Part shown: in pieces, positions 31,715 through 35,833 of the stretch | Layout of the letters: each line of letters starts with the position of its first letter | Numbering within the stretch: position 1 is the first letter of the stretch | NCBI GenBank assembly: GCA_964616835.1 | Contig: CAZTSG010000001.1 | Location: 8,830-72,829 of the forward strand | Reading direction: 5' to 3' | Length of the DNA: 64,000 bases | From: an uncultured Nitrososphaerota archaeon | Lineage (GTDB): Archaea; Thermoproteota; EX4484-205; JAAOZP01 | Notes under the pieces: model-generated | Databases searched by the model: none | What the model was told of the DNA's origin: nothing | The model's input: the letters and a program-made list of their open reading frames with translations, nothing else | Translations under genes and position numbers: made by a program

Positions 31715-32022
31715 TTATGGTCCTCCAGTATGTTGGATTCCCCTTGGTCCACTATTCCTATAACAGCAACTGGGTATTTTAAGCTTAACGCCTTCCCTAA
31801 CGCTACGCGAGAACCCTCATAGACTATTGACGGAGTCTTTGAGAGGTCCAGGGCGTTTTTAAGCATCCCGAGATACGGCTCCGGCAGCTTTGAGACGTAT
31901 ATTACTCCCTCCAGCTTACCCCGTAGCACAAGCCTATAGACCTCGTTGAAACCAGTTACGAAGCTACCTGTCTTAGCAAGGAGCTCAAGCCTGCTGCTTA
32001 GAGACGCTTTCTCCTCCGACAT
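31711..32022 (-). CDS. rpl30e: 50S ribosomal protein L30e
   Basis: 103-aa L30e/L7Ae-fold sequence (GKLEGVIYVSKLPEPY...VAVIGIVDQG). Conserved position after rpoA. Confidence 0.85.
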   Translation of the reverse strand: MSEEKASLSSRLELLAKTGSFVTGFNEVYRLVLRGKLEGVIYVSKLPEPYLGMLKNALDLSKTPSIVYEGSRVALGKALSLKYPVAVIGIVDQGESNILEDHK

Positions 32023-35000
32023 CTCCCGAATCCACCTTGCTCTTCGTAAAGCCCTCTATATCAACGTATACCTTGACCATGCCTGTTCCAGCATATATCT
32101 CTGAGCCTGCAAGCACTCTCTCAGTCATGCCGAGAAGCTTATCCTCCATGCCTGCTACAGCCCCCTCCACTAGGACTTGGACGGCTCTTTCGAAAGCTGC
32201 CTTGGCGAGGACGCTCTGCTTGCTCCCGCTTACCCCGTGCCTGCCTATCTGTTTCACAGTCCCGTCTTGAGTCATAGCGCTCGCGACGAGCGATAGGTGC
32301 CTCCAGTCAACGTCCAAGCCCTGCTCGTTCAAAGTCTTCCACATTTCGTTTATTAAAGCAGCCCTAGCCGCCTCTATGCCAAGCACCTCGGCTATCTCAT
32401 GGATATCGTTGGTAACTGTCCTCGTGTAGTCAACCTCCGGAATGTTGAAGACCTCTGCGAGGTTGCTTCCCTCCGTTATTATGCAGTACTCCTTGTTCTC
32501 CTCCTTTAACAAGACTCCCTTAACTCCGGTTATTCCGCTTACAGGCGTCTTCCTTATCTTTGATTCAAACTTCTCAGCATCGTTCTTAATGGGTATTTCG
32601 ATGGTGCCGTCGCTCTTAACGTTGAACCTTACGTTGAGCGTCTTAAAGACCTTCTGCACATCTTCTTCTGAAAGACCTCTTTCAGCCAACCATTCTTTAA
32701 CCGGATATATGACGAGATAGTCGTATGCCGTGGTTGATTTCAAACCTATTCTAGCCACGTCCTCTATCGTCGTGTAAACCATTTTCTTAGCGACTCTGAG
32801 CGCTCTACTATAGTCCTCGTTGTACGGTTTCTTCAAATAGACAGTCATCATCGGCGTCTTCGGCGTCTTCCTCGCGTCGAGCAGTTCGATAAGCCTCGGC
32901 AGCCCTAGGGTTACGTTCGCCTCCCTTACGCCGGCGTAGTGGAAGGTTCTCAGAGTCATCTGGGTACCGGGTTCCCCTATGGATTGCGCTGCAACAATCC
33001 CCACGCTTTCCCCAGCTTCTACAAGCGCCCGCTTATACTCTTCAACCACCCTCTCCACAACTTTCCTAGCGGCTGAAGCTGGGAGACGCTTAGAGATTAT
33101 CGCGTGGAAAGTCTCCTTCTTAACGTTGAGCGGGAGTATCCTGCCGTGCTCCTCGATCATCTTCTTAACGGTCTGCCTGCTTGCTGGACTACCCTTCTTA
33201 GGTATGGACAGCAAGTATTCTTCAACTATTCTGAAAGCATCGACAGACTTCCCATGGTCGCTCTTAGATGGGTCTACACCATCCTCGCCGTATATTATGT
33301 CAACTATGTTCCCGTAGGAGTCTCTCACAGTCCCATCGTACTCTACTCTAAGAGATTCCAACGCGTGTATTAGTCTGCGCTGCAAGTATCCGCTCTGCTG
33401 GGTTCTAACTGCGGTGTCCACGAGGGATTCGCGCCCACTCATAGAGTGGTAGAAGAGCTCTATGGGTGAAAGCCCCATGTAATAATTAGCTTTTATGAAT
33501 CCTCTCGCAAGGGGACCGAGGTCTCCTCTTCGGAAATGCGGCAGAGGCCTCTCAAAGTACCCTTTGAATATTCTCTTACCCCTCAGAGCCTGCTGCCCCA
33601 GGCAGCCGGATATCTGTCCTACGTTAAGGTCTGAGCCCCTCGCACCAGTCTTAGTCATCACGACCATGCTGTTGTCCAGCCCTAGGGTTGACGAGACTAG
33701 GTTTCCAACTCTGCTCCTAACGTTTGAAAGAGCGTCCATTATGTAGGCCTCTAGGCTCTCCTCCTCGCTCATCCCGGGGATCCTCTTTATCTTGCCCTTC
33801 TTCCACTCCTCAAGCAGCTTCTCAACCTCGGCATCAGCCTGGTCCACTTCTCTACTGACTCTTTCCTGAACGTTCTTAGGCAGCTCCACATCCCTGTAGC
33901 TGAAGCTGAAGCCTCTTAGAAGAAGGAATTCTCTAACCATTTTCTCGAATGCTGAGATAAACCTGTGGCCTTCCTCGGCTCCGTACTTCTTTATTATCCT
34001 GTGTAGGATGGTGTCCGCCTTCTCAGCGCCTATGGAGGCCTTGTCGATAACCCCGGATATTATCTTCCCGTTCTTTATGACTATCTCCGCCTCCTCCTTG
34101 CTCGCAGCGTCTCCCACGCTAGTCTTATTCACGTAGTTAAAGTCCTTCCTCAGCAACAGGCTGACTGCCTGCCGGCCTGACCACAGGGGTTCCGGCGTCT
34201 TAACCTCCGGCTCAGGAAGCTCGCCCTCATAGCCCGCGGCATACACTATTCTCGCAAACTCCTCCTTAGTAAGATAAGTGTCTTTCCTAGTGAGGAGGTA
34301 GGCTCCTGTTATGAAGTCTCTTATCGCACCCATGATGGGTGCGCCATACCTCGGAGTAAGGTAGTGGTTCTTAACACCTAGGAGCATGCTCGTCTCTACG
34401 GAGGCCTCTAGGCTCTGCGGCACGTGCAGGTTCATTTCGTCGCCGTCGAAGTCCGCGTTGTAAGGCGGGCAGACGCTCGGGTTGAGTCTAAAAGTCTTCC
34501 CCGGAAGCACTTTCACCCTGTGCCCGAGCATTGAGAGACGGTGGAGCGAGGGCTGCCTGTTGAAAATCACGAAATCACCGTCCAGCAAGTGTCTTTCGAC
34601 AACGAAACCTATGTCGAGTGCTTCAGCGAGGGTATCCCTGTTCTCAACAAACTGGAGCTTATGCTTAGCGCCGCCGGGCCTAATTATGTACTCTGAACCA
34701 GGGTGTGTGAAAGGCCCGTTTCTGACGAGCTGCATCAACCAGTCCCTATTCCAGTACGTGACTCTCTCAGGTACTGTGAGTATTTTAGCAACCTCCACCG
34801 GGACGCCGACTTCATCAATATCGAGATAGGGGTCGGGAGATATTACTGTCCTAGCGGAGAAGTCGACCCTCTTTCCTGAGAGGTTCTTCCTGAAACGGCC
34901 CTCCTTCCCCTTCAGCCTTTGCGCGAGCGTCCTAAGCGTCTTACGCGTCCTGTGCTGTGCCGGGAGTACCCCAACGGCCTCGTTGTCGAAATAAGTCGTC

Positions 35001-35833
35001 ACGTGATACTGTAGAAGATCCTCATGGTCCTGTATTATTAAGGGGGAGGCTCCGGACTCTATGTACTCCCTTATTCTGCGCGCTGTCCTTATTATGTCGA
35101 CAAGCTTATGCGTTAAATCGTCTTCAGACCTCTCGCCGGTTTCAAGTATTATCGAGGGTCTAACCTGTATGGGTGGAACCGGCAGGACTTCTATAACGTA
35201 CCACGCTGGATGAGCAACCTCAGGGTCTATGTTCAGAAGCCTAAGGTCATCGTTAGGGATCGAGTTTAAACGCTCCCTTATTATCCGGGAGTTTAGAAGC
35301 CTAAGGGCTCCGTCAGGATCCCTCTCGTAGAACTTCGTAGGTCTCTCAAGCCTGATCTGGTATTTCTCAGCCCCGCAGTGCGGGCACCTGTTTGCCCTCC
35401 TAACCTCGTCCTTTATCTGGTCGAAAATCTGCTCGGGCACGATGCCGTACAGCTCCTCGTACTCCCTCATCTTCTCCCTGTAATGGCTTATCCTATCGTT
35501 CGGCAGCAGTATTCTGCCGCATTGCCTGCAGGTTGATTGCAGAACGCGTTCGATCTCCCGCGCGAACGAAACATGTATCACTGGGACGGGCAGCTCTATG
35601 TGTCCGAAGTGTCCCGGACATTTGTCGGGCAGGTTGCCGCAAGTCTTGCACCTCTGCCTAGGCTCTATGGTTCCTAGGCGCGTATCCATTATCCCGCCTG
35701 GGACGGAGAGACCGTCCTGGTCATACGTCTCGTCAGTCGTCACTTCCATCACGGAGAGCTTCCTGATCTCAGCTGGGGATAGTACTCCGAACTTTATCGA
35801 ATCCAGCTGCTTTATCTCAACTTCCTGACTCAT
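31985..35833 (-). CDS. rpoA: DNA-directed RNA polymerase subunit A encoded as one continuous ORF (A' and A'' portions in frame, 1282 aa)
   Basis: N-terminal zinc motifs, [10 protein letters not shown] catalytic loop, then no stop, and the A''-type region begins (KKMIEEHG... [26 protein letters not shown] bridge/trigger loop). Junction codons verified at ~33150-33200. Confidence 0.85.
   Translation of the reverse strand: [1282 protein letters not shown]

Follow-up and report, generated by a model that had tools for sequence, protein, structure and literature searches.

A continuous 1282-codon rpoA gene, very probably the normal unsplit A-type RNA polymerase subunit gene of a Brockarchaeota archaeon

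We analysed rpoA (rpo1), the gene of the largest RNA polymerase (RNAP) subunit, in a 64,000-nucleotide stretch of DNA from an uncultured Nitrososphaerota archaeon (contig CAZTSG010000001.1 of assembly GCA_964616835.1, positions 8,830 to 72,829), which is called the window below. The gene occupies 31985..35833 on the minus strand and carries the regions homologous to the A' and A'' subunits in one uninterrupted frame. Based on its reading frame, domain content, join and relatives, we consider it very probable that this is the normal rpoA of a Brockarchaeota archaeon, encoding the largest RNAP subunit as one polypeptide of the unsplit "A-type". The architecture is real, ordinary and already known from this archaeal branch. 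The single-polypeptide A-type was defined in opposition to the "A'A''-type" by Da Cunha et al. 2017 (PMC5484517), and Table 1 of Nunoura et al. 2011 (PMC3082918) marks the RpoA of Caldiarchaeum, Thaumarchaeota and Korarchaeota as a "fusion" and that of Crenarchaeota and Euryarchaeota as "split". Unsplit A-type genes have thus been documented for Thaumarchaeota, Aigarchaeota, Korarchaeota and Bathyarchaeota in descriptions dating from 2010-2017 (PMC3082918, PMC5484517).

When we examined the list of open reading frames (ORFs) and the translation, the gene appeared as one ORF with an ATG start and 1282 codons followed by a stop, with 0 internal stops. The first-pass annotation of the window had described the same continuous ORF of 1282 amino acids (aa), and the protein strings that it quoted from the two sides of the junction are contiguous in the translation. 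Pfam recognized RNA_pol_Rpb1 domains 1-5 in the protein, all in order. Among the NCBIfam models, TIGR02390 (RpoA') covers aa 8-869 with 1225 bits, above its cutoff, NF006336 covers aa 5-873, and TIGR02389 (RpoA'') covers aa 900-1257 of the same chain with 415.5 bits, slightly below its cutoff of 420.65. The presence of the RpoA' and RpoA'' models within one chain confirms the earlier description of a head-to-tail A'+A'' polypeptide, and chance does not account for it. The A'- or Rpo1N-homologous part comprises aa 1 to ~883 (33185..35833, minus strand; TIGR02390, NF006336 and alignments to PDB chains), and the A''- or Rpo1C-homologous part comprises aa 884-1282 (31988..33184, minus strand), as delimited by TIGR02389, by alignment to Pyrococcus Rpo1C and by a stand-alone Desulfurococcales A'' protein (P0130) with which it shares 48% identity.

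The catalytic parts are complete. Pattern searches of the translation found an intact Zn motif (C62-H75), the catalytic Mg-binding motif NADFDGD at aa 459-465 (34439..34459, minus strand), and a block at aa 800-821 (33371..33436, minus strand) which also aligns with a conserved block of the Rpb1, RPC1 and bacterial beta' chains in the PDB and which, from established knowledge, we take to be the core of the bridge helix. A further block at aa 948-968 (32930..32992, minus strand), found by pattern search and by PDB alignments, is the N-terminal part of the trigger loop, again named from established knowledge. At the level of the sequence, the features of an A-type gene are present: the A'- and A''-homologous regions share one frame with no stop or frameshift, Rpb1 domains 1-5 are accompanied by the Zn motif, NADFDGD, bridge helix and trigger loop, the join is collinear with the canonical split site and carries no inserted domain, and the gene stands in rpoH-rpoB-rpoA-L30e-nusA-S12-S7 synteny and has fused orthologs in sister lineages. 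An in-frame stop of the split type, which would follow after ~880 aa and precede a separate A'' start, was not found at the join.

We located the join by comparing aa 780-1010 and aa 845-935 with solved PDB structures. Residue 874 of the 880 in Saccharolobus Rpo1N lies opposite aa 872, and residue 901 of the 906 in Thermococcus A' opposite aa 877; on the other side, residue 3 of Pyrococcus Rpo1C lies opposite aa 885 and residue 10 of Saccharolobus A'' opposite aa 889, and the solved A' chains terminate opposite about aa 878-885. The split comparators were these PDB chains together with a 50% representative library. Many of the library matches to the A'' part were contig-edge fragments, for which match length alone cannot separate fused from split proteins, and the A'' starts were mapped only from matches that align from their own residue 1-3 and carry source names. 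Such stand-alone A'' proteins, including named Desulfurococcales and Woesearchaeota subunits, start opposite about aa 880-891, and Met1 of the Desulfurococcales A'' lies opposite aa 884. Because the solved A' ends and the stand-alone A'' starts map there, the canonical break corresponds to the loop IPKKGSPAS at aa 877-885 (33179..33205, minus strand). Judged from these alignments, aa 877-885 is the homologue of the canonical A'/A'' break, with residues neither gained nor lost. The loop contains a G881-x-P883-A884 motif, whose G, P and A are present in 114, 102 and 106 of 121 fused homologs, respectively. The motif is common to Bathyarchaeia and Nitrososphaerota sequences, and the length of the join is equal in them within 1-4 residues. 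In an AlphaFold2 (AF2) model, the join appeared as a helix (866-876), a loop (877-885) and a second helix (886-896), with predicted local distance difference test (pLDDT) values of 75-88 at the join; the model was built for aa 760-1282 only, and its overall quality is mediocre (mean pLDDT 68, predicted template modelling score 0.44).

The unsplit state is shared by all relatives that we retrieved. The best 120 matches in a collection of 5.8 billion proteins are all 1269-1291 aa long, all contain the five Rpb1 domains, and, where a name is given, belong to Brockarchaeota, Thermoproteota, Bathyarchaeia/Bathyarchaeota and Nitrososphaerota; a protein cluster of Korarchaeota has lengths of 1266-1270 aa. 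We also scanned the GTDB species genomes with a junction-spanning alignment as the query, and the best 80 loci, which are a sample and not a census, came mainly from Bathyarchaeia, Nitrososphaerales, Nitrosopumilales, Nitrosocaldus and Hecatella. These 80 loci contain no Brockarchaeota representative and no split lineage, and hence do not show where split relatives set in. In every one of the 81 loci with an exact IGEPGTQM (79 of the best 80 scan loci together with L001 and L002), this motif and the A' C-terminal GYxQRRL motif were found in one stop-free frame; these loci are of Brockarchaeota type or from Bathyarchaeia, Nitrososphaeria and Hecatella. The first-pass annotation had proposed a remarkable lineage-specific fusion and had itself allowed that commonly fused close relatives would make it unremarkable. 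All retrieved relatives, close and moderately distant, are unsplit and the architecture is already documented, so that the proposal does not hold. Separately, three loci with Bathyarchaeia-type fused rpoA at 59-61% identity (L023, L025 and L034) lie on contigs titled Methylomirabilota bacterium, Acidiferrales bacterium and Methanocella sp., which suggests mis-binned archaeal contigs in those metagenome-assembled genomes (MAGs).

The A-type RpoA of Thaumarchaeota, Aigarchaeota, Bathyarchaeota and Korarchaeota is, like the window gene, a single ORF of ~1270-1290 aa with collinear A' and A'' parts in the same operon, and we observed no architectural difference between them; the identity of the window protein to the Bathyarchaeia and Nitrososphaerota A-type proteins is 53-59% over 98-100% of the length. 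The split Rpo1N/Rpo1C pairs of Saccharolobus (2PMZ/2WAQ), Thermococcus (4QIW) and Pyrococcus (8CRO) are homologous to the window protein from end to end; in split Thermoprotei and Euryarchaeota, however, a stop codon and a new start stand at the loop, whereas the window gene reads through in frame. Eukaryotic Rpb1, RPC1 and RPA190 and bacterial beta' are likewise single chains in which the conserved blocks flanking the join align, and the beta' chain 7L7B_D aligns straight across it (213 versus 205 residues). Between the universally conserved blocks, yeast Rpb1 has 156 residues (878-1033) while the window protein has 56, and no C-terminal domain (CTD) of heptad repeats is seen at the C-terminus of the translated window protein. 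A eukaryote-like Rpb1 architecture was rejected on these two grounds, the lack of the foot expansion and of the CTD, and the protein is archaeal-type, not eukaryote-like, save for being unsplit.

With regard to the origin of the unsplit state, we constructed a crude neighbour-joining tree of the A'' part. The window protein grouped with the other sequences of Brockarchaeota type, and this group lay within a cluster of fused sequences, outside which a split Desulfurococcales sequence fell; this clustering is only suggestive. De Anda et al. 2021 placed Brockarchaeota within the TACK group (Thaumarchaeota, Aigarchaeota, Crenarchaeota and Korarchaeota), basal to Aigarchaeota and Thaumarchaeota (PMC8065059), and from this position an unsplit rpoA is therefore expected. 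RNA polymerase is not mentioned in that description paper (PMC8065059), and our literature searches on Brockarchaeota with RNA polymerase and on "unsplit" returned nothing specific. An alternative is that the gene arose by a recent secondary fusion specific to Brockarchaeota and unconnected with the unsplit genes found in Thaumarchaeota, Bathyarchaeia and Korarchaeota. Such events do occur, as the secondary RpoA fusion reported for Pacearchaeota attests (PMC5484517), and one could picture Met892, beside the join, as what is left of an earlier start codon. Met892, however, is unconserved even within Brockarchaeota-type relatives, the join shares its length (within 1-4 residues) and its G-x-P-A motif with Bathyarchaeia and Nitrososphaerota, the window protein groups with fused sequences in the crude tree, and the published placement sets Brockarchaeota beside Aigarchaeota and Thaumarchaeota (PMC8065059). 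We regard a secondary fusion as very improbable. The word "fusion" itself presumes a direction of change, and the unsplit state may be ancestral.

A broader possibility, which we consider improbable, is that the range of the unsplit A-type reaches additional deep branches of TACK/Thermoproteota, represented by Brockarchaeota and by fused lineages with 56-59% identity (P0007-P0017). If these lineages and Brockarchaeota were basal to the Bathyarchaeia/Nitrososphaeria clade and to Thermoprotei, this would bear on the debate in Da Cunha et al. 2017. Either the unsplit state would then be favoured as ancestral, Thermoprotei having split the gene independently of Euryarchaeota, or one re-fusion in the distant past, with the G-x-P-A loop as its mark, would be favoured.

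The codon of Met892 (33158..33160, minus strand) is that of an ordinary internal residue. The corresponding position is Ile or Leu in close relatives (P0003-P0005) and most commonly Arg among the 121 fused homologs, and in the partial AF2 model the residue lies within a predicted helix. No GGTG/GGAG-type motif precedes it (cagaccgttaagaagATG), unlike the rpoA and L30e starts of the operon. Met892 was rejected as a relic A'' start on the grounds that it is non-conserved, lacks a Shine-Dalgarno-like motif and lies in a predicted helix, 7-14 residues downstream of the break; the earlier assignment of the A'' N-terminus to Met892 is accordingly replaced by the homologous break at aa 877-885. The same residue matters for another alternative, in which one gene gives two proteins, separate A' and A'', through internal initiation near the join or proteolysis of the loop. 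Nothing positive was found in its favour; the join is, to be sure, a short loop. Against it stand the absence of a Shine-Dalgarno-like motif before Met892, where the rpoA and L30e starts have motifs of the GGTG/GGGAG type, the lack of conservation of Met892, the absence of a stop to terminate an A' product, and loop residues that are constrained as coding sequence. It seems highly unlikely that the subunit is produced in this way.

The weakest alternative is that the genome truly has separate A' and A'' genes and that a stop or frameshift was lost in the contig. An error of this kind is plausible a priori for a MAG-type contig, and a few related loci (L033, L044, L054 and L067) are broken elsewhere in rpoA. 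The identical 1282-aa protein, however, is found on 5 contigs from differing assembly sources, among them JGI 3300022546 Ga0212122_1000159 (50 kb) and a Logan assembly of SRR7539953, each with 99.92% nucleotide identity to the window. The uninterrupted gene and the same operon also occur in four further, more divergent MAGs at 87-97% aa identity (values including 97%, 87% and 88%), namely GCA_017601345.1 and GCA_017601395.1, both named Candidatus Brockarchaeota, and GCA_038850895.1 and GCA_038848185.1. Continuity at the join was seen in 120/120 of the best matches as well as in 81/81 of the motif-bearing loci. When we calculated the ratio of nonsynonymous to synonymous substitution rates (dN/dS, NG86), comparison with the 97% relative gave 0.055 for aa 875-900 and 0.032 for the whole gene, and comparison with the 88% relative gave 0.196 and 0.054, respectively; the substitutions in aa 875-900 against these two relatives are in frame and mostly synonymous, with 0 indels. 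This pattern indicates that the join is read as coding sequence and that purifying selection acts on it. The loss of a stop in assembly or sequencing, which the first-pass annotation had offered as its second explanation, is thus rejected, with a negligible chance of being correct, by independent assemblies, both identical and divergent, and by in-frame changes across the join that are mostly synonymous.

The four broken loci belong to Bathyarchaeia and Nitrososphaera genomes; their rpoA frames are interrupted upstream of the join, leaving stop-to-stop segments of 382-726 aa, and the join itself is open. These breaks probably stem from frameshifts in assembly rather than from alternative positions of the split.

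Here, we need to consider several points that weigh against the reading of the gene as a normal, vertically inherited A-type rpoA. First, the fused sequences of Korarchaeota stand away from the main cluster of fused proteins in the neighbour-joining tree, and this tree, which has no support values and includes many untyped sequences, is no sufficient basis for deciding whether the unsplit state had a single origin. Second, the partial AF2 model is mediocre, so that the join can be described as helix-loop-helix only tentatively. Finally, that the product remains one chain, free of post-translational processing, is a prediction from the sequence. Based on the observations above, we suggest that the gene would be expressed in the cell as a single polypeptide of ~140 kDa (estimated from 1282 aa), and that the unsplit state was probably inherited vertically.

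In RNAP structures, the A' part contributes the clamp, the active site and the bridge helix, and the A'' part contributes the trigger loop and the jaw. In the window protein, the A'-equivalent part would supply the Zn motif, the NADFDGD catalytic site and the bridge helix, and the A''-equivalent part the trigger loop and the remainder of Rpb1 domain 5, the two parts being joined by a predicted 9-residue loop between two helices at the point where other archaea have a stop and then a start. The join includes no added linker, and the protein has no eukaryote-type foot expansion. The enzyme would be expected to act like any archaeal RNAP, and the only change would be the covalent link of two subunits that lie side by side. 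This arrangement is the one common to Bathyarchaeia, Thaumarchaeota/Aigarchaeota (Nitrososphaeria) and Korarchaeota, and topologically it is also that of bacterial beta' and eukaryotic Rpb1.

The gene order around rpoA, as assigned by Pfam, is rpoH-rpoB-rpoA-L30e-NusA-S12-S7 on the minus strand, a canonical archaeal operon. The first gene, rpoH, encodes the Rpb5 C-terminal domain (39197..39454; PF01191, E = 4e-32). It is followed by rpoB (35838..39200), which is also unsplit, with ~1117-1120 aa and Rpb2 domains 1-7, as is the same gene in relatives. The end of rpoB lies 4 nt upstream of the ATG of rpoA, and a GAGGGTG/AGGGG Shine-Dalgarno-like motif stands before that ATG. Downstream of rpoA are the ribosomal protein L30e-family gene (31711..32022; PF01248), a NusA-like KH protein (31259..31714; KH_5), S12 (30788..31216; Ribosom_S12_S23) and S7 (30172..30750; Ribosomal_S7), all on the same strand. 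The L30e start overlaps the 3' end of rpoA by 38 nt (31985-32022, minus strand) in a different frame. Because this overlap is also called in the relatives L001, L083 and L085, it is conserved and not a start-codon miscall. Archaeal operons of this type usually carry EF-2 after S7; here, an IMP dehydrogenase gene identified by Pfam (28658..30094, minus strand) follows S7 directly.

The remainder of the window consists of housekeeping genes. These include an ATP-dependent DNA ligase (2143-3759), a ribonucleotide reductase with an ATP-cone (8912-11527), the termination factor FttA/aCPSF1 (17483-19384), EF-1alpha (25317..26642, minus strand), a family B DNA polymerase (50013-52466) and the small subunit of PolD (59980-61458). 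The co-occurrence of PolB and PolD agrees with the Thaumarchaeota/Aigarchaeota-like gene set of Table 1 in Nunoura et al. (PMC3082918). A 496-aa ORF at 25128-26618 on the plus strand, antisense to EF-1alpha, has no Pfam match and is most likely a non-coding shadow ORF, and the ~2 kb between the IMP dehydrogenase and EF-1alpha genes (26642-28658) contain only small ORFs of at most 128 aa. A 142-nt tRNA gene at 39751-39892 on the plus strand (Rfam, 46.9 bits) was missed by default ARAGORN, and the intron mode of that program called it as tRNA-Asp(GTC) with an intron of 68 nt that begins within the anticodon. Inspection by eye of the C1-G72 pair, the A73 discriminator and the CU-GUA-G loop suggests instead a candidate tRNA-Tyr(GUA) with two introns, one of ~45 nt after position 37 and one of ~23 nt before the T arm.

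The finding has little significance beyond correct annotation. The NCBI label for these 1282-aa proteins is "subunit A'", which hides the included A'', and with this label pipelines in which A'' serves as a marker gene would report it as absent from these genomes. Whether rpoA is split or unsplit is a classic example of a rare genomic character used in deep archaeal phylogeny and in debates on the archaeal root, and the window puts Brockarchaeota on the unsplit side, as their published placement predicts.

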